Source: a virus (lineage: Duplodnaviria; Caudoviricetes). Taken from it: DNA of 62,172 bases. Each line of letters begins with the position of its first letter. Position 1 is the stretch's first letter. The position numbers were made by a program, and so were the translations under genes. Below the pieces are notes generated by a model. That model saw only the letters and a list, made by a program, of their open reading frames with translations, was not told the origin of the DNA and did no database searches. Of the stretch, positions 9,258 to 61,453 are shown one piece after another. The stretch covers positions 1-62,172 of IMG/VR virus record IMGVR_UViG_3300037991_004042; one strand, 5' to 3'.

Positions 9258-9284
9258 TTGACACGAATTAATTATTGATATAAT
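9258..9284 (+). promoter_or_regulatory. Sigma70-type promoter with no downstream ORF
   Basis: TTGACA (9258-9263) and extended -10 TGA-TATAAT (9276-9284); the spacer is only 15 nt. Confidence 0.7.
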
Positions 9285-9290
9285 TAATAT

Positions 9291-9385
9291 TTGAATACAG
9301 GAAAACTGTATTCGTCCTAGATAAGGTTATAAGAGTTTAGACTCTTGGGAATTGGGAGTGGTTACCCAATTCCTTTCCTTATTTT
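9291..9385 (+). ncRNA. Candidate trans-antisense sRNA targeting the 50467 leader
   Basis: Own promoter, three hairpins and a terminal GGAATTGGG/CCCAATTCC stem with U-rich tail; 9315-9340 is complementary to 50435-50459. Confidence 0.6.
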
Positions 9386-9392
9386 AGGCTGT

Positions 9393-10718
9393 TTAAACCG
9401 TTGGTTTTACATACTTGTATGGATGGTCATTTGGAAGTCTAGGCCATGTTGCATACTTCTGAGCAAGATAACCTTCAAGCTTTTGTCGTTCTCCAGACCC
9501 TAACTTACCGCTTACCAATATGATTTCTGCGACATCACCGTCAAAGTAATTAGCGGATGCTGCTGATCCAATAGTTAAAGAATCTGAGTTTGCATTATCA
9601 CAAGTAACAGAAGTTGTAACTCCAGCACTTCCATCAATATAAAATCCTTCGCCTGAAACGATACCTACTATCTGAGCGACATTATTAGTTAGGCTTGCGT
9701 CTGCCGAATAAACATTTGTTGTACCCACAAAGTGCGCAGCGTCATTAGCAACACCAAGACTGTCTTCAACACCAAACTTGTAATTAGCACCTTTACCCAA
9801 AAGGCTTTGAGTTGAGCTTCCAAATGTTGGAGACATAAGAGCAAAGATTGTTATATCAGACCCCGCACTAATATCCAATGTACTATCATCAGGAGCAAGG
9901 AGAGTACTGCTAGCACCATCAAATCGTAAGATTGTAAGACCATTGATCGCAGATCCCACAGCAATCGGCTCAGAGCCCGATGTAGACGATAGATCATTAG
10001 TATTCCCTGAAGAGTCTGACCATGCAGTTACAGTTGTTCCAGTAACTCCTGCTTGTGCATTATACCACGCCATAAGCGTTAGGCCAGCCCCAGCAATATT
10101 TATTGGAGTCCAATCCGCTGGTGCTTCGCCATCAGATGTATATTCCAATACAGCAAAGTTATCCAAGTAAACTGTTCCTGAGCTTACAAGTATTCCAGCG
10201 TCACCACTTGTCAGTCTGTTAGCATTTGTATCACCAGTGCTAGCAACAATGTTGTCATCTAAAAGCAATTGTAAATTTACAGGATTTGTTCCATAACAAC
10301 GCATTTCAATTGTATGCTTTGGCCCTTTAGAAACATTATTTGAGTTTAATTTTGCATCTACAAGAGTTGTCTCTTCATTGCTTACTCTTCTAATAATCTT
10401 TACACTGTTGTCATTCTCTGAGAATTGTCCAATATAACAGTCATATGCTTCTTCTGGAGCACCTTGATAGTTACTTGCTCTTGAGATAAGGCCGAGAGTT
10501 CCGCTTGCAAATTCAGATGTGTTAGGCCAAGCATAATCCATTTTGGTGGAGTAATGAACCGCTGAGAACGCAGTAGAGGTTCCAACAATTTGTGTAAGAT
10601 AGTCCTCTGTAATTGCAGAGACGCCAGCAGCACCAACAAGAACCCTTCCAGTTAGAACCCCAGTTGGGTCGTCAATAGCACCCCAGCCACTTGATCCTTT
10701 CCAATTACTTTTAGACAT
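9393..10718 (-). CDS. Virion protein with concanavalin A/LamG-like lectin domains
   Basis: AWYNA...WSDSSGNTNDL...ILRFDG...YFDGDVAEII...ERQKLEGYLAQKY pattern; last gene of the structural operon. Confidence 0.7.
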   Translation of the reverse strand: MSKSNWKGSSGWGAIDDPTGVLTGRVLVGAAGVSAITEDYLTQIVGTSTAFSAVHYSTKMDYAWPNTSEFASGTLGLISRASNYQGAPEEAYDCYIGQFSENDNSVKIIRRVSNEETTLVDAKLNSNNVSKGPKHTIEMRCYGTNPVNLQLLLDDNIVASTGDTNANRLTSGDAGILVSSGTVYLDNFAVLEYTSDGEAPADWTPINIAGAGLTLMAWYNAQAGVTGTTVTAWSDSSGNTNDLSSTSGSEPIAVGSAINGLTILRFDGASSTLLAPDDSTLDISAGSDITIFALMSPTFGSSTQSLLGKGANYKFGVEDSLGVANDAAHFVGTTNVYSADASLTNNVAQIVGIVSGEGFYIDGSAGVTTSVTCDNANSDSLTIGSAASANYFDGDVAEIILVSGKLGSGERQKLEGYLAQKYATWPRLPNDHPYKYVKPTV

Positions 10719-10726
10719 ATTATCTC

Positions 10727-11080
10727 CTAGCGATTATCGCCCTCGCCATCTATTTTATTTCTAGATTCGCGATCCTTTAATTTTAATATATTTATGTTTG
10801 CTATTTCTTCTAAATCATATCCTAACTCAGATGAAAGCGCAGAAATGTACCAAAGAACATCTCCAAGCTCTTTTGCTATTTGATCTTTATTTTCTTCTAT
10901 ATAATCAAACTTATTCTTTCTAATTCCCTTTTTTATCTTTTCAGACACTTCTCCGGCTTCGCCGATTAATCCAAGAGAGACATAGGCAAATTTAGCAACC
11001 CAGTCGTTTCTCGGATATATTGCAAGCTTTTGCTGCTCGATTTGATACTCTTGAAAACTCTTCACTTTATCTCCATACAT
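10727..11080 (-). CDS. mazG: MazG-like nucleotide pyrophosphohydrolase
   Basis: LGLIGEAGEVSEKIKK...KELGDVLWY...NILKLKDR. Confidence 0.9.
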   Translation of the reverse strand: MYGDKVKSFQEYQIEQQKLAIYPRNDWVAKFAYVSLGLIGEAGEVSEKIKKGIRKNKFDYIEENKDQIAKELGDVLWYISALSSELGYDLEEIANINILKLKDRESRNKIDGEGDNR

Positions 11081-11414
11081 CGTCTATGTGTTCTTCGTCT
11101 ATGTGCTCTTCATCTTCGGAAAAGAAACATTCAGAAGAATCATCTTCTTCATTTGTAAGATCAACATTGCTGTCTTGTTGCTCTTGGACTTCTTCAACCT
11201 CTTCAATTTCACTGCCTATTGAAATATGAGATATTTTAGAATTTTGCAATATTATCTCGTCAATTTTAAATTGCGAAAAGATTGGATCACTGAGTGAAGT
11301 TACACCTTTAAAATGTGTTCGCTCTTTATACTCTTTTGATATTTCATAAGAGTCAGCAGCAACAGGAATTGTGTCTGGAGAATTTCCAAATCTAACATAT
11401 GCAATTACTTTCAT
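11067..11414 (-). CDS. Hypothetical protein with acidic tail
   Basis: ORF; probable start MKVIAY at 11414. Confidence 0.65.
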   Translation of the reverse strand: MKVIAYVRFGNSPDTIPVAADSYEISKEYKERTHFKGVTSLSDPIFSQFKIDEIILQNSKISHISIGSEIEEVEEVQEQQDSNVDLTNEEDDSSECFFSEDEEHIDEEHIDDVWR

Positions 11415-11435
11415 TAAGACTTCCAAAAATAAAGA

Positions 11436-11469
11436 ATCCCGCTGCATAATATATATCATGCAGCGGGAT
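11436..11469 (-). terminator. 12-bp stem hairpin after the fibre gene
   Basis: ATCCCGCTGCAT/ATGCAGCGGGAT followed by a T-rich run on the - strand. Confidence 0.7.
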
Positions 11470-11489
11470 AAAGTGTACTAATTTATTGA

Positions 11490-12719
11490 TTACTTGATAT
11501 AGTCAACCTGAATCAGGTCGTCACTTTCAAGCGCAGCACCGAATGTGATTGTACCATTAGCGGCAACACTGTATTCAGTGTTATCACTTGGAGAAGGATT
11601 AGCACGAAGACGCTGACCGTTTCTAAATACACAAACACCTTCAAGGAAGTTTGCATTAACAGCATGGGTAAGAGATACGCTTGTACCACTTTGTCCAGTA
11701 AATTCTTCATATACTGGACGCCATGATTGCTTTGCAAGACCAAGAGAATTGTCTTTTACTTGAAGATTATTTGAATCAATTTCAATCGTTGAGTTATCAA
11801 CTTGAACTTCAATAGCACCACTATTATAATCAAGAGCACCACCAAGATCGGTTTGAAGATCACCAGAAGCATCGAAAGAAAGTCCTTTAGAACTTGCAAG
11901 AATAACTCTGATAGCACCACTGGAAAAATCAAGACCATAAGATGTGTCAAGATTTACAGCAATTGCACCACTTGAAAATACAACACCTTTGGCAGTGTCA
12001 ATCTTAGCTTCTAAATTTCCAGTACCGCTCTCAAAGCCCAAACCAGAAGCTGCTTTCAGTTTAGCTTGAATAGCACCACTAGCTCCGAATTCCAGACCAG
12101 CAGCAGTATTAATCTTAGCTGCAAGTTCTGTACCGCTTATCTCAAGACCACTATTGGCCTTAAGGTCAACGCTAATTTCATTTCCACTTTTCTGAAGACC
12201 GTCACCAGCAGTTACTTGTCCAAGACCAGTGAACTGAGTGAATGAAATGTCTGTAGATCCGACGGTAACAGAGTCATTGGTACAAACATATCCTAAGTCT
12301 GCGCTTACAGTTCCTTGCTTAATAAATACTGCGGATCCCGGAAATTCAGCATCTGCATCCATGTCATCGGCTCGTGACCAAGCACCAGCAGCACAAACAT
12401 AGATACCGTTCTCTTTTGCATCAGTTTGATCTTTTACAAGAACTCTATCGTTAGCAGTTACAGCAATACCGTCAATCGTTTGGGTTCCTGAAAGAGTAAT
12501 GTTTGCAGTAGTAGCAACTTCACAAGCATCTTTCCAGAAAGCACCTTGTAAAACTCCATCAACATATGCTTTGTTAGCAGCATCAGTAGAGCCAACAGGG
12601 GCCGAGCATCGGAGGAGAGCAGATCCAGATCCAAAGTCATAGGTTCCTGCTTGGAGGTGAATTTTATCAGCAGTAACCGAATCATCTTTATACTGCGGGG
12701 TTCTAAATTGAATAGCCAT
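11490..12719 (-). CDS. Fibre protein (head or tail) with beta-spiral-like shaft repeats
   Basis: DAANKAYVD, WKDACEVATTANITLSGTQTIDG...RVLVKDQTDAKENGIY domain, then repeated GL-x-F-xx-G-x-(I/L) units. Confidence 0.8.
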   Translation of the reverse strand: MAIQFRTPQYKDDSVTADKIHLQAGTYDFGSGSALLRCSAPVGSTDAANKAYVDGVLQGAFWKDACEVATTANITLSGTQTIDGIAVTANDRVLVKDQTDAKENGIYVCAAGAWSRADDMDADAEFPGSAVFIKQGTVSADLGYVCTNDSVTVGSTDISFTQFTGLGQVTAGDGLQKSGNEISVDLKANSGLEISGTELAAKINTAAGLEFGASGAIQAKLKAASGLGFESGTGNLEAKIDTAKGVVFSSGAIAVNLDTSYGLDFSSGAIRVILASSKGLSFDASGDLQTDLGGALDYNSGAIEVQVDNSTIEIDSNNLQVKDNSLGLAKQSWRPVYEEFTGQSGTSVSLTHAVNANFLEGVCVFRNGQRLRANPSPSDNTEYSVAANGTITFGAALESDDLIQVDYIK

Positions 12720-12847
12720 ATTATAAGCTCCTATTATGTCTATTTGTTAAAATATACCAACCAATGATTGGCGGGTATGTATTCTATATACGAAAACTTA
12801 TACCTATGACCAGTGCCCACAACAAGGACTTGACTTGATCTCAATTT

Positions 12848-13711
12848 CTAGGCAGGAGAATAATCTACAACTATTCTATCCCCAGCAATAGTAGCTTCTG
12901 AGAAGTTGAATTGAGTATTATTTAGTTCTGTAATTGTTGAAGAATCTTGTCTCTGACCATTCCAATAGACTCTTAGTGTGCCGCTTGCGTATTCATTAGA
13001 CAATGTAAATATTCCGGTTGAAGATCCAGCTTGGCTAGACAAATCTTCTTTCTGTAAATCTGATCCACCAGAAGATGGGGTTGGACTTGTGCCTTGAGGC
13101 CATCCTTGGTCAAAAGTTTCAGTTTGACCCAACTTGTAAGATGTTTGATTGTCCCAGTTATCGTATCCTTTTTCGCCAAAATAAGATGTCGATATGGTTG
13201 TGCCCGCACCAGAATACCAGCCATCATAACCCGCATCTGTAAACTCTTCCTTTCCTATAAATCCAGAAGCATACCAGCCAACGCTATCATTGGTTACAAA
13301 TCTCTCACTTGTAACAGTTAGTCCAGTTGTCATTGTTACAGAAGCGTGAAGAACGAGATTATAGTTCCTTGAAGAGTCAACCTTGTCTACTTCTGTTACG
13401 CGATTTACAACATCAATAATAGTATTTGAGCTTGTATCAAGCCTGTGCTGAAACATTCCTGCAACTGCAATATTCGATGTTGTAACTCTTTTATTTGCAA
13501 GATAAGCCAATGCCCGAGCAACAGAGTCAGGGTCGTGAACAGATACAGCAACATCATCAGACTCATTCAGTTCAAGATCGTCAAATGAGGTAGAGTCAAC
13601 AGGTGTTCTAATCTCTGCTGGAAGATTATAAGCCAGTTGATCTCTTAAATCTGAGAAAACAGTATTCAATTGTGCTGCGGTATAGCTTGTACGGTCTATT
13701 GTCAAAGGCAT
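12848..13711 (-). CDS. Putative virion structural protein
   Basis: Position in the tail module; C-terminal domain shared with the fibre protein. Confidence 0.65.
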   Translation of the reverse strand: MPLTIDRTSYTAAQLNTVFSDLRDQLAYNLPAEIRTPVDSTSFDDLELNESDDVAVSVHDPDSVARALAYLANKRVTTSNIAVAGMFQHRLDTSSNTIIDVVNRVTEVDKVDSSRNYNLVLHASVTMTTGLTVTSERFVTNDSVGWYASGFIGKEEFTDAGYDGWYSGAGTTISTSYFGEKGYDNWDNQTSYKLGQTETFDQGWPQGTSPTPSSGGSDLQKEDLSSQAGSSTGIFTLSNEYASGTLRVYWNGQRQDSSTITELNNTQFNFSEATIAGDRIVVDYSPA

Positions 13712-13718
13712 TGTTTAC

Positions 13719-14162
13719 CTACTTTCTCTTTTCAAATATTTTTATACATTGAGAATATTTATTGTTTTCATTGATAGAGTTTTGACCTTCTGACAAATGT
13801 TCCAAACATGTATCTACAATAATTATAGAGTTATTTAGGTTGGCTATTTCATCACATTCAATACTTGTAGATCCAGAAGAGTTTCCCTGCCTGTACATTC
13901 GACAAAGTGTCTCTCTGCAAAGACCGTCTCCATATGTGTTTATATATTCCATTGAACATGGGATACTTACAATATCCAAGTTTGAAAGAGACTTTGTTAC
14001 TTCAGCATTTGCCTTGTCTTCAATCGTTGTTGCTTCTGATATAGTTGTAATTATTTTTTCATTGGCAGCGTTCTGCTTATTAAGAACAAGTTTAAATATT
14101 ACTCCACCAGTCACAGTTGAGCCAGCAAGTATACCAATAATTATTGAGGTTAATGTTGTCAT
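13719..14162 (-). CDS. Membrane-anchored Cys-rich protein (spanin-like?)
   Basis: N-terminal hydrophobic helix and six Cys; function is speculative. Confidence 0.5.
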   Translation of the reverse strand: MTTLTSIIIGILAGSTVTGGVIFKLVLNKQNAANEKIITTISEATTIEDKANAEVTKSLSNLDIVSIPCSMEYINTYGDGLCRETLCRMYRQGNSSGSTSIECDEIANLNNSIIIVDTCLEHLSEGQNSINENNKYSQCIKIFEKRK

Positions 14163-14163
14163 T

Positions 14164-19334: not shown

Positions 19335-19336
19335 TA

Positions 19337-25378: not shown

Positions 25379-25394
25379 TACTATTACCTACAGT

Positions 25395-26215: not shown

Positions 26216-26338
26216 TTTAATTCTCCTAAAACATATCTTGTTGGTTAGAGTGAACTTTGAATAATGGTATATTTTTTGGTTGTCATTATTTGAAATAATT
26301 GCTATTTATTTCTATCCGATGAACAAAGGACAATCAAC

Positions 26339-26746: not shown

Positions 26747-26757
26747 TTACTTTGGCG

Positions 26758-47927: not shown

Positions 47928-47987
47928 GCTAGTCCCGTATCTAAGGTCGCAATTGATATAGCAAACAAAAATTGGAGTTAAACACAA

Positions 47988-50340: not shown

Positions 50341-50408
50341 AACTTAATCAAAATGATTAAAAAACAGTAGCCAAATCTTGTAAACATGGAATTACAAAGT
50401 TATTGAAT
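50341..50408 (+). promoter_or_regulatory. Operator-like palindrome plus candidate promoter of gene 50467
   Basis: TTAATCA-AAA-TGATTAA at 50344-50360, then TTGTAA-17 nt-TATTGA. Confidence 0.55.
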
Positions 50409-50466
50409 ACTTGCGGGGCCGGTCTGCTCTGCGCTAACCTTAAACTCTATTATCTAGGAGCCTATC

Positions 50467-51630
50467 ATGACCAATCAAACCAATAACACCACAACCACGA
50501 CCTCGGCGTCAACCTTTAAACTGAGTCTCATGTCTTGGAAGAGCACGGGGCTTTATGATTTGAGTGAAATCAATACTATCATTGAAGCCCTAACTTCAAC
50601 GGATAGGGGCCGAATTGTCTACGGTAAATTGTCAGCACTTCAATTCAATAATGGGCATAGTGTCGCAGCAAATGCTAGCACGATGATCCGAAATGACGAG
50701 ACGATTGCCGACCTCTATGAGATCAAGCATATCGCCAAGGGTCAAAATGACAACGGTGAACGGTGCGGGCACTTTGTCCTTTCCAAGGGATATGCTGTAC
50801 ATCTTGACGACAAAGGAGTTGCAAGTAACAAGATCCAATTGGAAATCGAACAAACAATTGGCTACACGATCACTCGTGATTTTGATACGGGCGAAATGAC
50901 TTACAAATTCCACGGTCAATTCTCCGACTTCATACAAGAACACTTAGAAGCTGCTGTTACTAAGTTCAACGGTAATGATGTTAAGCAAATGCTTATCGAT
51001 CCCGTGATCAAGGGCTTTAAAATGATGAGATATGGCGGATCCGGTGTATATGTGACACCGACCGACTTGGAGCCCCCTAAGAGACGATTCCTAGGATTGT
51101 TAGAAGATCACCTTGGGGATCTACTTCCTGAATTCGGATTTGACAAAGTTGTGGTCAATGAAGACGACGCTCGCCAAGTAAAGAAGGCTTGTAAATCTTT
51201 ATTGGGTGGGCTTGAAAGTCGTATGGCAGAAGCTTTACAAGTGGTTGATAAATTGCAACACCAAGATGATTATGGAAAGCGGGAAGTAAGCAGCAAAGCA
51301 ATAACTAAAGCCTTTCGACAAATCTCAGATATGCAACAGCAAATTTATATGTATGAAGACCTTATGAATATGAAAAAAGATCTAACAGAGTCACGAATTT
51401 CCTACATAAGCGAGATGTTGGAAAAGGGACACGCAAGAGTAACCCAAATCAAAGAAGATCAAAAAGCTCGATTGTCTGCAAAGCAATCGCAGCCTTCAGC
51501 CCGCAAAAGTAAAATGCAAGCCTTACAAGCGGAAAAAGATGCGGCCCTGCTAGCACAAGAGGAATTGCAAGCACAATTAGCGGCAATGCAAGCACAATTG
51601 GCAGCCCTAACCGCTCAAGCTTCCAAGTAA
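50467..51630 (+). CDS. DUF6744/DUF3150-like protein with C-terminal coiled coil
   Basis: AGGAG RBS; FNGNDVKQML...MRYGGSGVYVTP motif recalled from that family; family call is tentative. Confidence 0.55.
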   Translation: MTNQTNNTTTTTSASTFKLSLMSWKSTGLYDLSEINTIIEALTSTDRGRIVYGKLSALQFNNGHSVAANASTMIRNDETIADLYEIKHIAKGQNDNGERCGHFVLSKGYAVHLDDKGVASNKIQLEIEQTIGYTITRDFDTGEMTYKFHGQFSDFIQEHLEAAVTKFNGNDVKQMLIDPVIKGFKMMRYGGSGVYVTPTDLEPPKRRFLGLLEDHLGDLLPEFGFDKVVVNEDDARQVKKACKSLLGGLESRMAEALQVVDKLQHQDDYGKREVSSKAITKAFRQISDMQQQIYMYEDLMNMKKDLTESRISYISEMLEKGHARVTQIKEDQKARLSAKQSQPSARKSKMQALQAEKDAALLAQEELQAQLAAMQAQLAALTAQASK

Positions 51631-51650
51631 GCGTAAGTGATAAAATTCCC

Positions 51651-51677
51651 AAGGGGACTCGCAAGAGTCCCCTTTTT
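51651..51677 (+). terminator. Intrinsic terminator
   Basis: AAGGGGACTC-GCAA-GAGTCCCCTT-TTT with a GNRA loop. Confidence 0.9.
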
Positions 51678-51947
51678 GCTTTGCAAGTTTTTTATTTTCA
51701 ACTTGCAAGAAATAACTTCCAAACTCAAACGAAGCGTTTTCAGTTTCGTTCTTTTGCTTTGCAAGTATAAAACGCGTGTTCAAGAATTGTGCGCTCTCAG
51801 GCTTTACAAGTATGCGCTCTTGAAGATTCGCATAATTATATTATGTAAGCGTTTATAAGCGCAATATGTCAAAATAAACAAATTGCCGCTTATTACAATA
51901 TATTATACAAATTCACATGCGTTGAGTAGTAAAATATTACAAATATA

Positions 51948-52235
51948 TTAATTGTCTCTTATCTTATTTTTTGATTGCGGAACAGAATCAACCGGCAAGA
52001 ATTGTTCGTCCTTGCAAATGCGCATCATCTCAAACAAGTCGGGTATAAACAATTCTACTGTAACTGTATCGTATCCACACTCATTCGATGAGCAGCGACG
52101 CCTTCTAACTATATAATCGCTTGAATACCAATCGATCAGAACAGCGGCCTTAGAACGCAAGTATGTGCGTGTATTATCATCCTTTGAAGATGTGTTTATA
52201 ACTTTAAACTTTGAACCACATCTAGGACATTCCAT
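51948..52235 (-). CDS. NrdR N-terminal-like Zn-ribbon protein
   Basis: MECPRCGSKFKVINTS...VRRRRCSSNECGYDTVTVE; no ATP-cone. Confidence 0.7.
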   Translation of the reverse strand: MECPRCGSKFKVINTSSKDDNTRTYLRSKAAVLIDWYSSDYIVRRRRCSSNECGYDTVTVELFIPDLFEMMRICKDEQFLPVDSVPQSKNKIRDN

Positions 52236-52573
52236 ATCGCAACCTAATTGAGTAGTGAGCGCAGTTGTAATATATCTTTTAATTCAATTGTTTATTTTAT
52301 AATTACAACTATTTGTACACGCCATGTAAGCGGTTCTGGGATTCGCTCGTATTTGGCCCGTGTTGCGTTTTGGTTGATAGCCTAGCCTAGACACAAGACA
52401 CGGTCAAAGAAGGCGACACAAGGCGAGTATGAAGGCCAATTATGATGGTCTTAGACTGCTGATTGGTTGTTATCTGTATATCCGGAAATGGTGAATTGAT
52501 GCCATATCAATAATTATTATTTATAAGTGAATTAAAAGTGATCTTATCTTCAGCCTTGGAAGTGGAGCCATGC

Positions 52574-52596
52574 GCGTCAGGCGTCAGGCGTCAGGC
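52574..52596. repeat. (GCGTCAG)x3 tandem repeat
   Basis: Directly visible. Confidence 0.85.
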
Positions 52597-52947
52597 TTGG
52601 AAGCCTTTTCAGGCGAGTCGCGATTTGGCGTTTTTGGTGCTGTATTCGTGTTCAGTAAAAGATCCGGACACAAGACAATAATTGTCCAAAGCGATCCCAA
52701 TTGTCAGAAAGATGTCAAGAAATGACCATTTTTCATGCGTTCAGCATGTCAATTAAACAATACAATGATAATTTGAGATTAGGCAATTACGCCGATCAAA
52801 CCTACCATGCGAGCGACCCATGACCTTATCAGATCTTGCAACTTTAATTCATGAGTGGACTGTAATAGTTCACTTCGAAACGATTTTTGCTGTAGCACTA
52901 ACAGCAATTGTCTTAATCATTCCAACCCTCAAAGTACAGGAGTAATC

Positions 52948-54333
52948 ATGCCAAACAATTCTTATAACCTTCAAGAACTAGGAGCCGAGATGCTAACCAC
53001 ATCGCAAGCAGAAATACAGGAGTCTTTCAGTAGATTTGCAAATCTATATCAACTGACCAAAGACTCTTTCATTGAAAGAAATGAACTTACAACTTGTATC
53101 TTTACCGCTATGATCGCCGGTGAAAATGTTGCAACTGTTGGATTGCCGGGGACTGGTAAGTCCATGATAATCAGAACGATAGCAAAGAATATCTTACAAG
53201 CTAAGTATTACGAAACTATTGTTGATAAGTATACGAAGAAGTCAGATTTACTTGGAGAGGTTTCCATTCCCGCAATGAAAGAGGGTCGCAGGGAAATTTT
53301 TATCCAAGACACATTTGCAGATTGCAACTTTGCATTTGTTGACGAATTCTTTAAGGCTTCAGGAGCCACAAGTAACGCAATGCTCGGTGTCCTGAATGAT
53401 AAAAGGGCTTGGGATGGAAATCAGTATGTTGATTGTCCGCTTATCTCATGCGTCGTTGCAAGTAACGAGTACCCAAACGCAAAAGAACTTGGGGCTCTTT
53501 GGGATCGATTCCCGCTTCGATACCATGTACTTCCAATCCAGTCAGAAGACAATTTCGAAAGGCTAATCTTCCAAGATAGCTTCGATGTTGACTCACCAAT
53601 CAACCTTGCAGATATATATAATGTGCAAGCGATGGTCGATACAGTTGGATTTTGTAAGGGTGCATTTGAAGTGCTCAAAGAGCTTAGGCTGAAAATGATT
53701 GCTTATAAAATATATGTATCTGATAGGCGTTGGAAGAAAGCCATAAAGATAATGAAGGCTTATGCAGTATTGCAAGGCAAATCTTCAATTGACCGTGAGT
53801 GTTTCAACATTCTAATGCACATGATGTGGGACAAGCCCTCTCAAAGAACAACAATTGTAAACATTATTGAAGAACTTCCCCCAATGGCTACACCGAAGCA
53901 GTTGCGAGAAGGCCAATTCAAAGATCGTTGCAATTCATTACAAGAAGAGTGGGAAGAGCACAAGTGGAATATAAAGACTGCAAGTGTTCGGCATACAGGC
54001 GGAAGCCTAGTCGAAAGAACAGAAGCATTTGTAAGCGAAGTTGAAACCGCAATACAAGAGGAAGGTCTAGACGGCTTACAACGCGTTCTTGACAGATCAT
54101 GCGATTGGGTTGTTGAAGCTACAACTTTATCATTCGAGCGCGATGTCAATGATTTGATCGCAAAGCTTAACAGTGAAAAAGATCCACTTAAAAGTGCGGT
54201 AGAAGCAACACAATTCACACTTAATTATTACAAAGGCAAAAGAGAGGAACTTACAAATAGCGGCCTAGATGTTGAAAGAATCGTGGGCTGTGACAAACTT
54301 ATCAACCAATTACAAAGCATGTTTGGAGCTTAA
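52948..54333 (+). CDS. MoxR-family AAA+ ATPase, RavA-like
   Basis: GLPGTGKS, FVDEFFKA, ASNEYP, ALWDRF, VSDRRWKK; AGGAG RBS before ATG 52948. Confidence 0.9.
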   Translation: MPNNSYNLQELGAEMLTTSQAEIQESFSRFANLYQLTKDSFIERNELTTCIFTAMIAGENVATVGLPGTGKSMIIRTIAKNILQAKYYETIVDKYTKKSDLLGEVSIPAMKEGRREIFIQDTFADCNFAFVDEFFKASGATSNAMLGVLNDKRAWDGNQYVDCPLISCVVASNEYPNAKELGALWDRFPLRYHVLPIQSEDNFERLIFQDSFDVDSPINLADIYNVQAMVDTVGFCKGAFEVLKELRLKMIAYKIYVSDRRWKKAIKIMKAYAVLQGKSSIDRECFNILMHMMWDKPSQRTTIVNIIEELPPMATPKQLREGQFKDRCNSLQEEWEEHKWNIKTASVRHTGGSLVERTEAFVSEVETAIQEEGLDGLQRVLDRSCDWVVEATTLSFERDVNDLIAKLNSEKDPLKSAVEATQFTLNYYKGKREELTNSGLDVERIVGCDKLINQLQSMFGA

Positions 54334-54334
54334 A

Positions 54335-55672
54335 ATGAAAAGACTTACAGAAATAAAGTATGAGCAAAACGAAAAAACTATTAATGGCGTCAATGATCCG
54401 CTTACAAGATATGTATTTGCAAGCGTCGTTGAGCAAGCCGTGATCCCGCTTCCAAGTGAGATGATAGGCGTTGATAAGATTCTCTATCAAAAGATTACAG
54501 AAGACGATCAGTTTCTAGACCTTGCAAGGAACTTAGAAGACTCGGATGGCAGCGCATTTGCTGTATCATCTTGGCTTGTAAACAAATGCAGGGAGCTATT
54601 CAAGAAAGAGCTTAGATACTTTGACGGTGATCTTGAGAAGACAAAAGATTACTTGGAAAAAAGAGATGGTATCTTGGGTGAGAATGATGCTGTTCAAAAG
54701 TCGGAAGCAATTTCCAACTTTGAAAAGGCGTTAGGTAGGGACTTGTCAGGAGATATTGTTGTCAACTGTGGAGCAGGAGACTCGGAAGGTCAATTTGGGG
54801 TTCATATCAATGAAACACTTATTGAAATTCTAGGTAGCAAAAACCTCTCGCCGTTCGCTAGTGCGATTGGAAGGCTTGAAAAGGCAATGAGTATCGCAGA
54901 TAATTCCAGAGGCTTACGAGGTCAACAGACTACAAACATCGATATGTCAGATGATATATCGCGAGTCTTGGAAAGCGAGTTCGCTATGCTGTCAGACGAT
55001 GATTGCGAGGACAAGTTTTATGAAGACTATCTAAACTCATCATTGCAAAGCTGGGAAGAAGACGGTGACGAAAGTCTTTCCAATGGTAACCTTATCATTC
55101 TTTTGGATATATCCGGAAGCATGGATAAGCAATTGTATTTCGGTACTAAGTCAAATGGTAGCGGGCTTTATGTGTCGTCTTTGGATCTTGCAAAGTCAAT
55201 CATATATGCGATACTTAAAGATCGCAAGGATAAGTCTGATACGCTCTTCCAATTTGATTACCAGTGTAGAGATGTACAAGCCATTACAAACTTCAGTGCA
55301 AGCGATCTCAAAAAGCTTCTAAGTATTCATACTGGAGGCGGTACTGACTTTGCTCCAACCTTGGAAAAGGCTGTAAGGTATTGCGATAATAGACCAGAGT
55401 TGGGATATGACATATTGCTTATAACTGACGCTGATTTTGATTCCGATGATGTTGCTGCGATGGAGCACTTCAAAAAGAATTGCAAGTCAGAAGCTAGAAT
55501 CTTCAGCCTAGTGATTCACAATAGAATTGCAAATGTAATAAAGAAGATAAGTCACAAGTCAATCTTGCTAGACACTTACGAGGACATGCCTGAGCAACTT
55601 GATAAGCTTGCAAACCTTGTCCTTGACATCGAGGAAGCCACAATAGAATTGGGAGCGACTCATGCTAAGTAG
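54335..55672 (+). CDS. vWA-domain protein, ViaA-like
   Basis: DDISRVLESE, MIDAS LLDISGSM, GGGTDF, LLITDA; adjacent to the AAA+ gene. Confidence 0.9.
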   Translation: MKRLTEIKYEQNEKTINGVNDPLTRYVFASVVEQAVIPLPSEMIGVDKILYQKITEDDQFLDLARNLEDSDGSAFAVSSWLVNKCRELFKKELRYFDGDLEKTKDYLEKRDGILGENDAVQKSEAISNFEKALGRDLSGDIVVNCGAGDSEGQFGVHINETLIEILGSKNLSPFASAIGRLEKAMSIADNSRGLRGQQTTNIDMSDDISRVLESEFAMLSDDDCEDKFYEDYLNSSLQSWEEDGDESLSNGNLIILLDISGSMDKQLYFGTKSNGSGLYVSSLDLAKSIIYAILKDRKDKSDTLFQFDYQCRDVQAITNFSASDLKKLLSIHTGGGTDFAPTLEKAVRYCDNRPELGYDILLITDADFDSDDVAAMEHFKKNCKSEARIFSLVIHNRIANVIKKISHKSILLDTYEDMPEQLDKLANLVLDIEEATIELGATHAK

Positions 55673-55916
55673 TTTGCAAGTTAGAAAGGCTTTGGAGTGG
55701 TGGAGGCCACTCCACAAGTCTACAACTCTACCTAACGCCCTGCTCTGGGCAGAATTGAAAGGTCTAGAAGTGACATTCCATGAGACTGGTCGGTCTTACG
55801 AGTACATAAGTGTGACCAAAGAAGGTTGGGACTTCGAGATACAACTTAAATTTTCATATGGATTTATTCGAGAGATTCTAATCCACCAATCAATGCAATT
55901 AAAGATGGAGCTTTAA
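55662..55916 (+). CDS. Hypothetical protein
   Basis: GGAG RBS; operon packing. Confidence 0.65.
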   Translation: MLSSLQVRKALEWWRPLHKSTTLPNALLWAELKGLEVTFHETGRSYEYISVTKEGWDFEIQLKFSYGFIREILIHQSMQLKMEL

Positions 55917-55917
55917 A

Positions 55918-56106
55918 ATGACTCACAAGGAAAGATACCCTAGCCAGTACAATCATCCTCTTGTAGGCCGCAAAGTAATGGCGCACGACGGAAGCGAGTT
56001 TATTGTCTTCCGAGTAGTCGATTCTCGATTCGGGAAACTGGCTATGTCAGAATCGCAAACTCGAGCATTCCAAATATCAACACTTACAATTATAGAGGAA
56101 CAATAA
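55918..56106 (+). CDS. Hypothetical small protein
   Basis: GGAG RBS; operon packing. Confidence 0.65.
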   Translation: MTHKERYPSQYNHPLVGRKVMAHDGSEFIVFRVVDSRFGKLAMSESQTRAFQISTLTIIEEQ

Positions 56107-56107
56107 A

Positions 56108-56803
56108 ATGGAAAACATTATAAGCGAAGACGAACAACTAATCATATCGTTCAATGGTAAGTATGGGCGCACCGAAGGGTTCAGGAGATTTGTAAACGCA
56201 GAGTTAGACTTTGATACCTTCGAGCAATCATACATGGTAAACGGTCAATTGCTACTTGAAAGGTTGTACCCTGCAAGAATGGGAACATACACGCTCTGGA
56301 AGTACAGCGTTTGCAAGAGTGGAGAAGTCAAGGGAACGATACTCGCAGACCCAATCTTTGAAATGTCAAAGATCGTTGGCGAGGTAACCGTGCTTGACCT
56401 TCTAGCCATAACAGAAGCGATGCACCGGTACAAAGGCGCAAGCTTTATAAGGCCACCACTGCACCATATAACTGATGACCTTCTAAAGGTGCGCTTGGGC
56501 ATGCAAGTCCCATCGTTTGTAAGTATTGAACCAATGCTAACGAGGGTCAAGAATAAACGGTCTAACAATAGGAGGCTACTTAAGAGGCATTCGTCGAATA
56601 AAAACGGACTGAAGGCCCTCTCAGGAGCCTTCTTGACGGCAAATATCGACCGCCTATCCGAGCCAGAAATCAAAGGCCCGTTTGAGCAAGCAACCGTGCT
56701 GTGGTACGGCGAAAGTGTACACTTACAATATGATAACTTCAACTCAGCAGAGGAGTTTATAGACTTCGAATATGCGTGGGCGAACTTCTTTTATAGAAAG
56801 TAA
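56108..56803 (+). CDS. Hypothetical protein
   Basis: GAGG RBS; followed by a terminator. Confidence 0.7.
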   Translation: MENIISEDEQLIISFNGKYGRTEGFRRFVNAELDFDTFEQSYMVNGQLLLERLYPARMGTYTLWKYSVCKSGEVKGTILADPIFEMSKIVGEVTVLDLLAITEAMHRYKGASFIRPPLHHITDDLLKVRLGMQVPSFVSIEPMLTRVKNKRSNNRRLLKRHSSNKNGLKALSGAFLTANIDRLSEPEIKGPFEQATVLWYGESVHLQYDNFNSAEEFIDFEYAWANFFYRK

Positions 56804-56823
56804 TACACTTACAAGCAGGTAGG

Positions 56824-56853
56824 AATGGGGCGCGGTTGAACGCCCCATTTTTT
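56824..56853 (+). terminator. Intrinsic terminator
   Basis: AATGGGGCG...CGCCCCATT followed by a T-run. Confidence 0.88.
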
Positions 56854-57218
56854 ATTTGCAATATGCGGCTTGGCGAATTGCGCCTTACCACAAATCCAAA
56901 CTGGATTAGGTAGATCCAAAGAAGAAATTGTAACTAGTTTCACCCTCACAAAATGTAACCGTTACAACATATGAATCTTGGTGGGATTGAATCAGTATAT
57001 CTTCATTGTAAGTAAATGCCTAATATTTATTCAGGCGATCAACATATGTTCTTAAATGTAAAATATATGTCAAACGACTTGCAAGAACTATTGACATTGG
57101 GGTAATATTGGGGGGAGGTTAGGAGGGGGGTCAACCGCAAGGCTTATAGGTAAACCCCAAAAAAACAATTAAAACCTCATAGAATTATAATTAATTAATT
57201 ACTAATTACTAATTAGAA

Positions 57219-57578
57219 CTATTTTTTCCAACTAGAAACGATACGCCTAGCATCAGCACGACTTGTAGGCATAGAAAGAGTGGAAGACACATTTTCGGGT
57301 TTAGGTTGCAACCCATTAAGATGAAGAGTCTCATATTGGTGACCGCTTTTTGCCCTTCTAAGTTTTATTTTGATACCCGCCTTGTCGATAACAACTCGAC
57401 CTGTGTGACTGCTACGAGCCACAGAGAGGAGATGGTCTAGAGTTTCGACTTCCAAGTATAATCGTACATCGCGATTACTCTCTGGCCCGCCAAGTTCAAA
57501 CTCTACTAATATATCATCACCACCATCTTGTAATGGTAATAGTTTTTGTATTATTCTATTCTTGAAATAATCAAGCAT
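57219..57578 (-). CDS. Hypothetical protein
   Basis: GAGG RBS before ATG 57578; overlaps the upstream stop. Confidence 0.65.
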   Translation of the reverse strand: MLDYFKNRIIQKLLPLQDGGDDILVEFELGGPESNRDVRLYLEVETLDHLLSVARSSHTGRVVIDKAGIKIKLRRAKSGHQYETLHLNGLQPKPENVSSTLSMPTSRADARRIVSSWKK

Positions 57579-58371
57579 CGATAACCTCATTCCCGTGTAT
57601 TGCAAGTACTCCCTTGCCCTTCATCTTCAACGCACTAAGGATTGCAACTAATTCCTCAGTGTCTTCCAACATAGCCTCTACAACATCACCACCATTCTGC
57701 TTTGCATGCTTAACCCTCAAAGATTCAGCCACAAACCTTGCCCCACCATTTTTGGAACCATCATCCAATAGTTCTCGGCGCAAGGCAATTAATGTTGGTA
57801 AGTCTCGCAAATTCTTGCGTAAGCTTCCATCTTTTATACCGCTTGCAAGATAACCAATCGCAGCATCTATTAGAATAAGATGTTTGCGCTTAACTTCCTT
57901 GTCAAACAAAGTTTCTTTCGGTTTTGTTTCTTCAATAGACTTCTGGACACCTTCAGAAACTGAACGAACTTTCCCGTCAGTTATACTTATAGGCGCAGCA
58001 ATGTTCTCTTGAACCATAACTATCTCGGAAGTTCCATACTTCACAGCATAAACCTCATTGTAAAGACGCTGAGCCTCTATATCCGAGGTAGCAGAGTAGC
58101 CAGCACGACTTTTCCAGTCCCAGTCTTTCTTATACTTGTAGACTGAGGAGTATGAACGCTCGATAGCCTTGGAAACCAAAGCAAGGTTGCGCTTAGACTC
58201 AACCTGCATAGCCCACAAAAGAAAAGCACGGTGTGCTCTTTCTGACTCGGCACTCATTCTTAATAGTGGACTTGCACCTTGTACATTTATTTCAATTCTA
58301 CTCATTTCTTCTTTATTTTTTTTCTTTATATTGGGCCTACCAACTGGATTTTTCTTCTTTATATTAGCCAT
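57571..58371 (-). CDS. Putative terminase small subunit (HTH)
   Basis: ESERAHRAF...KRNLALVSKAIERS...DWDWKSRA resembles TerS-type HTH proteins, followed by a helical region. Confidence 0.55.
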   Translation of the reverse strand: MANIKKKNPVGRPNIKKKNKEEMSRIEINVQGASPLLRMSAESERAHRAFLLWAMQVESKRNLALVSKAIERSYSSVYKYKKDWDWKSRAGYSATSDIEAQRLYNEVYAVKYGTSEIVMVQENIAAPISITDGKVRSVSEGVQKSIEETKPKETLFDKEVKRKHLILIDAAIGYLASGIKDGSLRKNLRDLPTLIALRRELLDDGSKNGGARFVAESLRVKHAKQNGGDVVEAMLEDTEELVAILSALKMKGKGVLAIHGNEVIDA

Positions 58372-58643
58372 AATTGAAACTCCAATTCAATAATTACATA
58401 ATTATATTAAAGATATATATCAATATTCGTATAAAACTAAACAATTTGTATGAGCTTACAGTCTTTTTTTCAAGTATTAGTGAAGTTGAGATTGCATTTG
58501 GGTTATGAACTTAGAGTTCTTGATTGTGATAAGTAGGTTTCATAGGTAGTTATTTAGTTATTCAAATTGAATTAAAGAATTGAATGTAAAATTGAAAGTA
58601 TTTTACTTATCTTAATCATTTTTAATAATAATAGAAGGATATT

Positions 58644-58716
58644 TTACAGGCGTTCTGTAATTAGGTTTCAAGCGTCCTGTAATATGTTTACAGGCGTTCA
58701 GTCAGGCGTCCTGTAA
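58644..58716. repeat. Four 17-bp pseudo-palindromic repeats, consensus TTACAGGCGTYCTGTAA
   Basis: Copies start at 58644, 58666, 58688 and 58700. Confidence 0.8.
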
Positions 58717-59082
58717 GTCCTTGTTTTTTTTGAGATATTTGATCCACGCGAATCTTTTTCTTTTGGCGCAGTATTCCAAGTTTGTTTCGTGTTCATACGC
58801 TTCTAGTTCGAATGGTAATAGGTGGTATGCTATTTCGCCGCTTCGATGTTTGATTAACAATGCGAGCCACATTGCAAGGTACAGGAACCATTGTCCGACG
58901 AATAGGAGTTCTATTTGTTGTTGGAAGTGTATTGTCTCGTGATTTTTTGTTTGTGGGTCGAGTTCTCCTCTGCACCATACGAACCATCCCAATGCGATGG
59001 CCCATATTTCTATTGGTGCCACCTTTGAAAGTATAATTGGTAGGCTTGAGTTTTCGATAAAGATTGGCTTCCAGTTTTTCAT
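58702..59082 (-). CDS. HExxH zincin-like protein
   Basis: NHETIHFQQQ...PFELEAY. Confidence 0.75.
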   Translation of the reverse strand: MKNWKPIFIENSSLPIILSKVAPIEIWAIALGWFVWCRGELDPQTKNHETIHFQQQIELLFVGQWFLYLAMWLALLIKHRSGEIAYHLLPFELEAYEHETNLEYCAKRKRFAWIKYLKKNKDLQDA

Positions 59083-59084
59083 AA

Positions 59085-59351
59085 CTACCTCTTTCCGTGT
59101 CGTTTGTAATTAAGGAATAGCTTATCTTTATCGTATATTTCCCAGTATATTGTTTTGTACTCCATCTTGTTTTCTTCTGGTATTTCTTTTAAGAATAAGT
59201 AGAGTAAACATTCTGATGCGAATTTACTTGGTTGGTGTCTTCTGTAGAGCCATCCTTCGATAGTCTTGTAATGGAAGCCTAGTTTTTTTGCGAATTGTGT
59301 TGGCGTGATACACTTTTGGGACATGTATTCGTCAATGAGCCACGGTATCAT
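59085..59351 (-). CDS. XRE-like HTH regulator
   Basis: ITPTQFAKKLGFHYKTIEGWLYRRHQP. Confidence 0.8.
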   Translation of the reverse strand: MIPWLIDEYMSQKCITPTQFAKKLGFHYKTIEGWLYRRHQPSKFASECLLYLFLKEIPEENKMEYKTIYWEIYDKDKLFLNYKRHGKR

Positions 59352-59365
59352 TTTGGATTCCGAGT

Positions 59366-60256
59366 TTATGATTGGTTCAATTCTATTGCGTCGTATTTTA
59401 TTGTCTGTAGATTTACGCCAGCAATATCTATTTTGTTGCTTGTAATGTGATAGTGTGCGCAGAATCCGGTGAACTTTTTATCTCTTACCATTGGATCTAC
59501 GCCATGATTAATGATGGGTATTTCAAGAGGTATGTTGTAAGCATTTGATATAGCCGCCCAAAGAGCAGAGAGTGCTTTCAGTTGTACTGGATAGAATCCC
59601 AAGTGTGTTTCAAGTGGTTTTCCGTGTACTGTAACGCCTTCTTTAATGGGTCTTTTTCCGTATCCATTTTTGACATACCAGTCTTGGTACTTTGTGTAGA
59701 AGGCATTTGTAATTTCTACGCCGATTGAAATTGAGTTGTGATTTCCTGCATGGTATGTGATGTGGTTTGTATCAACTGATTGCAAGATGGTTCCGTCGTT
59801 ATCAATCATAAAGTGAACGGATAGTCCACGGTTGTTTAGTATTCTAAGGCAGTGGTTTGATGATAGTGTTGCATCCCAATGGTTTACAAAGAGTATTGGA
59901 TCTCTTCTTTTATCGCAGAGTTTAAATGCTGAGTGGTTTGGTAGTAGTGTTGGGTCATCGAGATAGGTTACAACATTATCCCATTCGATAGGCATCTTTA
60001 CGCCATCGCAAATAATAGCCTTGTCACCAGCATTTTTCTTGAAGTGTATGTGAGCTTCCTTTTCTTTTCGCTTCGTCCATATTCTTCTAAATGTAATTTC
60101 ACCGACCATACCATCCGGTGTGAGTCCATTTTCCATTTGGAATGCTTTTACATTGTCTATAAGCTCTTCATTAAAGTCGGCGACACCAAACCATCTAGGC
60201 TTCCAACCATAGTCAAGTGAAGATTGCTGATTGTAAAGTATTGCTTTCTGACTCAT
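59366..60256 (-). CDS. Endolysin: peptidoglycan-binding domain plus N-acetylmuramoyl-L-alanine amidase
   Basis: VKAFQMENGLTPDGMVGEIT; VNHWD, SVHFMIDNDG, YHAG...SIGVEI, AHYHITSNKID. Confidence 0.92.
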   Translation of the reverse strand: MSQKAILYNQQSSLDYGWKPRWFGVADFNEELIDNVKAFQMENGLTPDGMVGEITFRRIWTKRKEKEAHIHFKKNAGDKAIICDGVKMPIEWDNVVTYLDDPTLLPNHSAFKLCDKRRDPILFVNHWDATLSSNHCLRILNNRGLSVHFMIDNDGTILQSVDTNHITYHAGNHNSISIGVEITNAFYTKYQDWYVKNGYGKRPIKEGVTVHGKPLETHLGFYPVQLKALSALWAAISNAYNIPLEIPIINHGVDPMVRDKKFTGFCAHYHITSNKIDIAGVNLQTIKYDAIELNQS

Positions 60257-60294
60257 GACTACTTCCCGTTTGTTTATTGTTGTCTTGTAAGCTT

Positions 60295-60390
60295 TAATAA
60301 GTGAGGAGGGCAGTTACGCCCCCCTCTTTAGGGCTAGCAACTGAAAGCAATCGTTTAATTATTAAAAGAAATGATGCCAGCCCCAAAATT
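60295..60390 (-). ncRNA. Two-hairpin structured element, possible third sRNA or endolysin leader
   Basis: Stems 60331-60339/60375-60383 and 60303-60311/60318-60326 form G-U pairs only on the - strand. Confidence 0.4.
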
Positions 60391-60398
60391 CAATGAAG

Positions 60399-61001
60399 TT
60401 ACTCTTCTTTTGTTTCTCTGAATGAGTATTCATAACCATATTCTTCTAATGCCGCTTTAATAACTTCAGTGGCAGACACTTTATATTGATTTTCTACGAA
60501 GACTGTTACTGCTGTCATTGAGTTGTCGTCATACTCTGCTGAGTCTTCTAGTTCTTCGTTTGCAAAGTCGTCCCAATCAGTTGTGTGCTCCATTAATTTC
60601 TCAATGTCGAAGTCAGAGAAGCCGAGATCATTCATGTCGAAGTCTTCTTGTAGATCCGAGATAAGTTCTTTGAGTTGTTTTTCATCCCATTGAGACAGTT
60701 CGCCGATTTTGTTGTCTGCAATTGCAAGTGCATCGGCTTCTTTGTCTGTTAGATCCATGAAACGGACAGGCACAAAGTCAAGATTTAGTTTTTTTGCAGC
60801 CTTAAACCTAGTGTGACCTGCAATTATTCTCTTTGTTTTAAGTTGAGCAATAATTGGGCTTGCAAATCCAAACTTTTGTATGGATACTGCCACATTTTCT
60901 ACTGCATGATTGTTTAATCTTGGGTTCAGATCCCATTCTATCAACTCTTCTATTCCAACCCACTCAGCAGCGGCGGGTTTTTCTACTTTTTCTATGTCCA
61001 T
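60399..61001 (-). CDS. ParB/Srx N-terminal domain protein
   Basis: NPRLN...SIQKFGFASPII...IIAGHTRFKAAKKL...IADNK...WD. Confidence 0.88.
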   Translation of the reverse strand: MDIEKVEKPAAAEWVGIEELIEWDLNPRLNNHAVENVAVSIQKFGFASPIIAQLKTKRIIAGHTRFKAAKKLNLDFVPVRFMDLTDKEADALAIADNKIGELSQWDEKQLKELISDLQEDFDMNDLGFSDFDIEKLMEHTTDWDDFANEELEDSAEYDDNSMTAVTVFVENQYKVSATEVIKAALEEYGYEYSFRETKEE

Positions 61002-61267
61002 AATAGTGCTCCCATTAAAAGTGTTTGTGCAATTCCTATTGCGATAATAAACTTAAGCTTAAAAGAATAATCTTTTGGCTTTTTGTCAGTGTTTCTTTTA
61101 AGAAATAGAAGCATTACTGGCTTGCCGTCTTTTTCAATTGCAAGCTGAGAGAATATTTCATAATCGTTCTTAAAAAGCGCATTCAACACCGCATCATTTA
61201 CGGAGTTTTTTGGGTTTGTAAGATCAATTTCTACGATAGTATTTGTATTTTCTTCGATAATGTTCAT
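60992..61267 (-). CDS. Hypothetical protein with C-terminal TM helix
   Basis: ORF overlapping the ParB-like start. Confidence 0.6.
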   Translation of the reverse strand: MNIIEENTNTIVEIDLTNPKNSVNDAVLNALFKNDYEIFSQLAIEKDGKPVMLLFLKRNTDKKPKDYSFKLKFIIAIGIAQTLLMGALLWT

Positions 61268-61313
61268 TTTTTTTCTTTATGTAAAATATAATAAGTTTTT
61301 TTTCTAATACAAC

Positions 61314-61403
61314 AAAAAAATTAAAGACGCTAGATAAAAGCGGTATCCCACAACCTCCTCTATCTAGCGTCTGACATCATGCTCACGAGCACCGAGCATG
61401 AAG
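61314..61403 (-). ncRNA. Candidate trans-antisense sRNA targeting the 5457, 5935 and 3911 leaders
   Basis: Promoter TTGACC-17 nt-TAACTT with TG extension (61434-61406), 8-bp 5' hairpin, 12-bp 3' stem (61325-61336/61361-61372) and U-tract. Confidence 0.6.
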
Positions 61404-61453
61404 AAAAGTTATCACTAATTTCTTTGAAGGTCAAGAATAAACAACAAACTTTT

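Follow-up and report, generated by a model that had tools for sequence, protein, structure and literature searches.

The virus record IMGVR_UViG_3300037991_004042 (Duplodnaviria; Caudoviricetes; 62,172 bp, 38% G+C), which was analyzed over its whole length and is referred to here as the window, contains two compact intergenic units, s1 and s2, each predicted to produce a short RNA from its own promoter. The s1 unit (9258–9385, + strand) sits between the convergent genes 8549–9220 (+) and 9393–10718 (−). By sequence reading, its promoter (9258–9284) consists of TTGACA (9258–9263), a 15-nt spacer, and TATAAT (9279–9284); a promoter scan limited to 16–18-nt spacers left it outside its listing. 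The predicted RNA of ~95 nt (9291–9385) contains a 5′ hairpin (9293–9313, loop GAAAA), an open segment, a second hairpin, and a terminator hairpin (9347–9374) followed by a U-tail whose T-run ends at 9385. It folds with a minimum free energy (MFE) of −34.7 kcal/mol (z = −4.88), a value that none of 200 shuffles equaled. The unit has no credible open reading frame (ORF) and overlaps none, only the presumed 3′ untranslated region of the late operon. Nucleotides 25–48 of the RNA (UCCUAGAUAAGGUUAUAAGAGUUU, 9315–9338, +) form the predicted target-binding segment, which gives the best duplexes with genes 50467, 52990, and 1154 at an opening cost of 5.5–10 kcal/mol. Another hairpin, at 9232–9253 between gene 9220 and the s1 promoter (sequence reading, strand unassigned), is the likely terminator of the − strand late operon. 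Because the − strand lacks a U-tailed hairpin between 9393 and 9254, late transcripts should run on into s1, and the late-operon transcript probably crosses it in antisense.

The second unit, s2 (61434–61314, − strand), is located between the − strand genes 61454–61684 and 60992–61267. Its promoter (61406–61434) is composed of TTGACC (61434–61429), a 17-nt spacer, and TGATAACTT (61414–61406), which by promoter geometry should place the transcript start near 61399. The predicted 86–90-nt RNA (61314–61403) comprises a 9-bp hairpin 1 (61401–61377, loop 61392–61386), a 16-bp terminator stem (61372–61325), and a U-tail encoded by a T-run. Its MFE is −40.9 kcal/mol (z = −7.03), which none of 200 shuffles matched, and the unit overlaps no gene and holds no credible ORF. 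The predicted seed, UCGGUGCUC (61387–61395, −), spans the hairpin-1 loop and 3 nt of the 5′ arm. Past the terminator lies a separate promoter for gene 61267 (TTGTAT, 16 nt, TATATT; 61285–61312, −). Read on the + strand, the s2 locus resembles a decayed start region, with GAGCACCGAGC-ATG followed by six codons.

Both RNAs are complementary to short sequence tags at phage translation starts. Partners were found by a genome-wide duplex scan seeded with 7-mers and subsequent reading of the sites, and interactions were scored in the manner of IntaRNA, each score being the duplex energy in 28-nt windows with the opening energies added, for 73 leaders (−50 to +20) or a revised set of 75 start regions. 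The best partner of s1 is the start region of a MoxR-type AAA+ ATPase gene, where TCTTATAACCTT-CAAGAA-CTAGGAG precedes ATG 52990 (52960–52992, +); it scores −10.2 kcal/mol (hybrid −23.5) and tops the 75 start regions. This site (52957–52984) shares CTAGGAGCC with the 50467 leader and has GCCGAG between tag and ATG 52990, in frame. Second of the 75, at −8.8 kcal/mol, comes a site inside the primase-helicase gene (1194–1165), in which AACCTTAAAA...TATCTAGGAG is followed by the in-frame ATG 1154, encoding Met126 (1152–1194, −). Met126 lies just past the zinc-finger region and is preceded by a Shine-Dalgarno-like AGGAG. Translation may begin internally at ATG 1154 and yield a shorter primase-helicase; gene 4 of phage T7 produces a short form in a similar way. 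A further copy of the tag, TAACCTT...TTATCTAGGAG (50435–50460, +), covers the leader and Shine-Dalgarno of gene 50467. The pattern AACCTT-N(0–25)-CTAGGA occurs four times in the window where 0.15 are expected, a count attained by none of 100 shuffles; two of the four copies defined the pattern, which leaves two extra copies to be set against 0.15. All three copies outside s1 lie on the sense strand, 5–10 nt ahead of an in-frame ATG, and the 50467 leader and the primase site have 9- and 10-mers in common, as if they were copies of one element. The other top matches of the seeded scan, of 7–9 nt to the two terminator loops and scattered over coding DNA and wrong strands, were read as noise.

In s2, UCGGUGCUC of the loop and 5′ arm is matched by GAGCACCG, which is present in four copies against 0.41 expected, a number reached in none of 100 shuffles. 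The 11-mer GAGCACCGAAA has exactly two occurrences, each between a GGAG box and an ATG. One belongs to the 63-aa gene 5935 (5924–5937, +), which ranks first of 73–75 with −10.1 to −11.1 kcal/mol; the other, GGAGAGCACCGAA-ATG (3909–3924, −), belongs to a gene for a Sak4-like annealing protein and ranks second of 75 with −8.6 kcal/mol. For this gene ATG 3911 is the most likely start codon in place of TTG 3926, with which the longest ORF opens, because a GGAG box lies between the two positions and the ATG is conserved in the related sequences L004 and L003, which are discussed below. A search of the window with the pattern GGAGNNNNNCGAAAWTG, in which the spacing was mis-set, gave no match.

These energies were compared with shuffled start regions, 119 sets in all (56 + 63), scored in the same way as the real set of 75 and with the structure of the RNAs kept fixed. 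The best energy of s1 was reached in 0 of 119 sets, the second best likewise in none, and the third best in 19. For s2 the corresponding counts are 6, 4, and 3 of 119, a borderline excess.

A preliminary description of this DNA had paired s1 with the leader of gene 50467 and s2 with that of gene 5457. It proposed separate small RNAs (sRNAs) for separate early operons, built on a shared permuted block layout that would allow register switching. The two ORF-less units are present as it described them, as confirmed by sequence reading, folding z scores, and the ORF check, and all six complementary blocks lie where it placed them. The layout is not shared: s1 has A′-B′-C′ against B-C-A in its target, and s2 has B′-C′-A′ against B-C-A, which leaves a common register-switching design unsupported. 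Nor does each RNA keep to one operon, since the best partners of each are two or three start regions in different operons and on both strands, and the named leaders rank behind 52990 and 1154 in the case of s1 and behind 5935 and 3911 in that of s2. s1 scores −4.7 kcal/mol with 50467 (−7.5 on a finer grid; rank 3–6 of 73–75), and s2 scores −5.7 kcal/mol with 5457, or a marginal −2.8 on the predicted transcript only (rank 4–6). Against 4,088 shuffled leaders, the per-leader P values are 0.019 (s1–50467) and 0.013 (s2–5457). Tiling with 7-mers, a statistic picked after the earlier claim had been read, covers 24 nt in 50467 for s1 (next best 9; P = 0.0455 or 0.004) and 23 nt in 5457 for s2 (next best 17; P = 0.024 or 0.094); with 6-mers the tiling is not significant and does not single out these two leaders. 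Raw full-length duplex energies were dropped, as they came from unrealistic 60–90-nt duplexes.

The promoters of the two leaders do share elements, TATTGAAT (5411 and 50401) and ACTTAATCA (5394 and 50342), as had been reported; the first is not rare, with six copies on the + strand and five on the − strand, and in relatives it reads TATTTATT/TACTTATT. The 50467 promoter (50378–50408, +) has TTGTAA, 17 nt, and TATTGA(AT), with an inverted repeat TTGTAA-N8-TTACAA. The 5457 promoter and leader (5377–5456, +) contain the inverted repeat TGATTAAGT...ACTTAATCA, a −35 box TTGCTC, and a TG-extended −10 box TATTGA (5411–5416). Its blocks lie at 5423–5445 and its mRNA is predicted to start near 5423, so the 10-mer block CUUCAUGCUC would fall at or before both 5′ ends, that of s2 and that of the 5457 mRNA; given an s2 start near 61399, four of its ten nucleotides fall upstream of the start.

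The sole relative with both RNA loci is L004, 21 kb from a metagenome contig of 63.8 kb; 34 leaders were scored in these 21 kb. Its flanking genes are 67–74% identical in nucleotide sequence, and blastn aligns almost none of the s1 and s2 intergenic regions. At both positions L004 has a promoter, hairpin(s), and a terminator, with folding z scores of −4.08 (s1-like) and −3.63 (s2-like). Nineteen nucleotides around the s1 −35 box, TATTTGACAYGAATTAATT, are identical in L004 bar one transition in an otherwise unalignable region, and the s1 promoter is the best-conserved piece of its intergenic region. The place of the s2 promoter is taken by ATGACA, 17 nt (the last three TGA), and TAATAG, a likeness that is only loose and weaker than for s1. 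Past the s2 terminator, L004 has TTGTAA, 17 nt, and TATATT at the same place as the window's promoter for gene 61267. Because both phages have this separate promoter, the upstream one would serve the short unit only. A 15-nt “conserved core” in hairpin 1 of s2 and its L004 counterpart was rejected, the best local alignment being no better than shuffles, and a boxB- or nut-like reading of the s1 GAAAA loop was dropped, as the loop is altered in two metagenomic strains and absent in L004.

The s1-like RNA of L004 carries UUUUUCCUCUUAG in an open stretch. Of the 34 leaders it pairs best with that of the first gene in the rightward early operon, at CUAAGAGGAAA covering the Shine-Dalgarno (11 bp, −12.5 kcal/mol, per-leader P = 0.011). 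In L003, a close relative of L004, a U replaces the first C of this site, which would keep a G-U pair if the L003 RNA is the same. The s2-like RNA scores −4.2 kcal/mol with the equivalent of the 5457 leader, outside the top 8 of 34; TAAGAGGAA and the complement of the s2-like loop are not enriched in the 21 kb. Conserved or compensatory pairing in related phages, which the preliminary description had named as a check, was not seen: the pairings differ in L004, with neither conservation nor co-variation of seeds and targets. At the codon aligned to Met126 of the primase-helicase, L004 has GTG together with an AAGGA box. Homology between the two phages is lacking for the first three rightward early genes (window 5457–6434, L004 8603–9637), although it extends to the promoter and the later genes of that operon, and the start of this operon looks like a hypervariable early region. 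L004 also has an extra 89-aa helix-turn-helix ORF (5914–6183, +; XRE-like by eye) between the s1-like unit and a 444-aa structural gene; the final codons of this ORF overlap the s1-like terminator on the opposite strand, and the ORF is absent from the window. A conserved cassette with lineage-specific bodies and partners fits rapid rewiring, and it fits equally a structural cassette with accidental partners.

Viral contigs gave no match to MoxR, to the exonuclease alignment, or to the proteins of 441 and 387 aa. A TerL search retrieved contig L002, which diverges 100 nt past TerL and lacks the RNA loci; in it a distant positional homologue of the 387-aa gene (50467) is kept, with a CTAGGA Shine-Dalgarno. 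A primase search gave a more distant relative (L007, 42% identity) without the intergenic unit, and genome contigs gave a rearranged distant relative (L005) whose metagenome-assembled genome has no match to two further proteins. A giant-virus metagenome-assembled genome (L006) retrieved with the promoter pattern is a chance match only.

Strain variation was followed in contigs of four runs from four studies over 5330–9420, with parts of runs X5, X6, and X10 uncovered. The only differences listed inside s1 are G9301C and the loss of 9302, both in the hairpin-1 loop and both in X6 and X10; the same X6 contig has 12 listed differences in the coding DNA just upstream, and none of the listed differences falls in the 5457 leader or the 5935 start region. 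Five further differences are not itemized, and the numbers are too small to show constraint. Over 9254–9290, two records of X10 match through 9289 and then continue into unrelated sequence starting AAGAGGAAAA, and one contig of X6 matches that stretch only, with six differences. The s1 promoter may be a module that is joined in other phages to varied sequences downstream; alternatively, such short matches may be spurious.

The anatomy, the folding, the complementarity, and its excess over shuffled targets lead us to favor, tentatively and at a little below even chances, the reading that s1 and s2 are sRNAs, each masking a tagged set of ribosome-binding sites. The host sigma-70 RNA polymerase would make s1 (9291–9385, +) and s2 (~61399–61314, −) from their own promoters, and intrinsic terminators would end both. 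Each RNA would expose a single short stretch mirroring a tag that is found at several phage translation-initiation regions. Nucleotides 25–48 of s1 would pair with AACCUU...CUAGGA(G) at 50467, at the MoxR ATPase gene (52990), and at the internal start of the primase-helicase (1154), and the hairpin-1 loop of s2 would pair with GAGCACCGA between Shine-Dalgarno and AUG of 5935 and of the Sak4-like gene (3911), its contacts with the 5457 leader being weaker. Pairing would hide the ribosome-binding site and so lower the translation, and perhaps the mRNA stability, of early and replication genes. Late in infection, the antisense late-operon transcript could remove s1. Both units have what is expected of trans-acting sRNAs in a predicted promoter of their own, an intrinsic terminator, and the lack of an ORF; the transcription, RNA ends, pairing in vivo, repression, and timing assumed in this scheme are predictions from the sequence.

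Several observations weigh against the masking of ribosome-binding sites. Shuffled RNAs equal the real ones, with a mean best of −9.7 kcal/mol for s1 and −10.3 for s2 (60 shuffles each); they are less folded and offer more open sequence than the real RNAs. Because they reach equal energies, the pairing excess rests on keeping the RNAs' own structure fixed. The trans-antisense complementarity that the preliminary description proposed exceeds, at phage start regions, the level of shuffled targets (borderline for s2) but not that of shuffled RNAs. The longest perfect matches are ordinary (P = 0.20 for s1 and 0.46 for s2), and in the MFE fold the s1 segment is partly paired with the 3′ tail of its own RNA. 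Three of the four top start regions (3911, 52990, and 1154) were revised or added after the matches had been seen, and the tag patterns themselves derive from the data. The start of the MoxR ATPase is ambiguous, 52948 and 52990 both being in frame; from 52948 the s1 site would fall at +13 to +36. Local alignment shows no conservation of the RNA bodies from the window to L004 (P = 0.73 and 0.34). The top match of the L004 s1-like RNA is not significant family-wise (P = 0.30), and no partner of the s2-like RNA stands out within the 21 kb (family-wise P = 0.28; five matches against 4.3 expected). The Sak4 start region of L004 and L003 has a poly-A spacer where the window has AGCACCG, and the tag is missing. 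No transcript of s1 or s2 is known, and the 24 listed runs with this DNA include no RNA run.

Both units lie where terminators are expected, and it is possible, though rather unlikely in our estimate, that they are mainly punctuation. On this account s1 is a terminator or insulator between convergent operons and s2 the terminator of the replication operon, with promoter boxes that are incidental or of other use. The complementarity would then have no regulatory role and would merely reflect the copying of short start-region cassettes to various places in the genome, with one inverted copy in each unit. The freely diverging bodies in L004, the decayed-looking start region on the + strand of s2, the 9- and 10-mers shared by the 50467 leader and the primase site, and the equal pairing of shuffled RNAs all agree with it. 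It accounts less well for the s1 promoter being the best-conserved piece of its intergenic region and for the promoter past the s2 terminator in both phages, which leaves the upstream one no gene to serve. The inverted copies, moreover, are located precisely where the predicted RNAs are open or form loops, and an inverted cassette behind a promoter makes an antisense RNA whatever its origin. The position and architecture of the units are kept while their sequence is not, as a cis role would predict, and we consider it unlikely, but conceivable, that the RNAs act in this manner. In that case s1 would be an antisense RNA or convergent promoter directed against the 3′ end of the late operon, and in L004 against the XRE-like gene, and s2 a 3′-end or leader element of its own operon, such as an attenuator with conditional read-through. 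The predicted passage of late transcripts across s1 and the L004 helix-turn-helix ORF that ends inside the s1-like terminator on the opposite strand point in the same direction. Lambda OOP and P22 sar, promoter-to-terminator units of 77 and 68/69 nt, offer precedents (PMC12197685). A cis role leaves the excess of two tags at distant start codons unexplained.

The attenuator variant of the cis account also lacks the parts of a Q-type antitermination leader. Systems of the lambda pR′-tR′ type combine a promoter, a short terminated leader, late or lysis genes without a promoter of their own, and an antiterminator gene. Here the genes downstream of s2 have their own promoter past its terminator, no Q- or N-like antiterminator was found among the neighbors searched, whose small proteins match no family, and read-through of s1 would run antisense into late genes. 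Cis and trans roles are not mutually exclusive. That one RNA serves each early operon (s1–50467 and s2–5457), with shared permuted blocks and register switching for early shut-off or superinfection immunity, now appears improbable. All of its blocks exist, 7-mer tiling tops exactly these two leaders, the per-leader P values are low, and TATTGAAT and ACTTAATCA occur in both promoters; the differing layouts, the lower ranks of both leaders behind other start regions, the −2.8 kcal/mol of s2–5457 on the predicted transcript with part of one block before the predicted start, the 6-mer result, and the poor match of the L004 s2-like RNA to the equivalent leader speak against it.

A wider form of the masking of ribosome-binding sites, doubtful but worth stating, is an RNA address system in which each sRNA mirrors a private tag on the ribosome-binding sites of a gene set across operons and is rewired fast in relatives. 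For s1 the set would consist of MoxR, its partner gene, and the short primase form, and for s2 of Sak4 and the 63-aa early gene. New RNA genes would arise when a start region is copied in inverted orientation behind a conserved promoter-terminator cassette. The + strand of s2, which resembles a decayed start region, and the − strand of s1, which has the 50467-type tag, suggest that both RNA bodies arose as such inverted copies. If the two RNAs are real, post-transcriptional regulons would cut across operons, the phage might have a way to set the ratio of long to short primase-helicase and to control a MoxR-vWA module of unknown role, and new regulators could evolve simply, by replacement of the body within a conserved cassette. 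To our knowledge, for very few trans sRNAs from virulent or environmental phages has a target been assigned in the phage's own genome; we do not claim that such RNAs are unpublished.

Among known systems, the c4 RNA of phages P1 and P7 (immI) is closest in its pairing. It lies upstream in its target's own operon and is cut out of that transcript, and its short split segments reportedly block the ribosome-binding region of a phage mRNA, a mechanism credited to Citron and Schuster in 1990. Like c4, s1 and s2 are phage RNAs, here predicted ones, of <100 nt with short split complementarity at the ribosome-binding region of phage mRNAs. Unlike c4, they have their own promoter boxes, show no sign of location in and processing from the operon of a target, and have two or three best partners each, in other operons and on both strands, at distances of 6–21 kb when the genome is taken as a circle (up to 58 kb along the window). 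The expression of Ant is regulated by C4 antisense RNA (PMC8201110). The Rfam C4 covariance model gave no match at its gathering threshold over the whole window nor at E ≤ 10 at either locus; Rfam as a whole gave zero matches at gathering thresholds over the window and nothing meaningful at E ≤ 10 at the two loci, in keeping with the earlier description, which did not recognize these RNAs as any named family. Lambda OOP and P22 sar both overlap the genes they act on. s1 and s2 are stand-alone promoter-to-terminator units within a phage genome as they are, and unlike them overlap none of their best partners. OOP (77 nt) and sar (68/69 nt) each lower the expression of a phage regulator by pairing, and a review table calls sar trans (PMC12197685). 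DicF of the Qin prophage is a 53-nt trans-acting RNA that inhibits ftsZ (PMC12197685). With DicF and bacterial trans sRNAs, s1 and s2 share a terminator hairpin with U-tail and, by prediction, a short seed that masks the translation-initiation region; unlike DicF, which targets a host gene, all their candidate partners are the phage's own genes.

The genome is probably circular, or circularly assembled or permuted, of ~62,073 bp, and the record complete, because a 98-bp identical terminal repeat joins window 1–98 to 62074–62171 and L004 is colinear across the window ends. The primase-helicase gene straddles the junction (1529..3 plus 62171..61686, −). No close cultured phage was found, with TerL at most ~25% identical and no DNA match; the runs that contain this phage DNA are marine metagenomes from eight studies. 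Divergent early promoters lie in 5210–5456. Leftward genes follow in the order exonuclease, Sak4-like annealing protein, SSB-like, resolvase-like, and primase-helicase, beyond which come a 76-aa gene, the s2 unit, a 91-aa gene, a ParB-N protein, and an amidase. The rightward operon (5457–9220) consists of small genes of unknown kind and has the s1 unit at its end, and the long − strand structural block (43701 down to 9393) ends facing s1. A + strand block after TerL (50467–55672) encodes the 387-aa unknown protein, a bpMoxR-type AAA+ ATPase, and a vWA protein. The 700-bp non-coding stretch ahead of the MoxR gene includes three tandem copies of GCGTCAG (52570–52600). ATGTCAA(A)GAAATG repeats occur at 5343–5365 and 52711–52725; read on the − strand they give TTGACA boxes, twice 11 nt apart, ahead of the leftward early operon. 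A piece of ~38 nt (5330–5367) is common to other metagenomic contigs, which diverge right after it.

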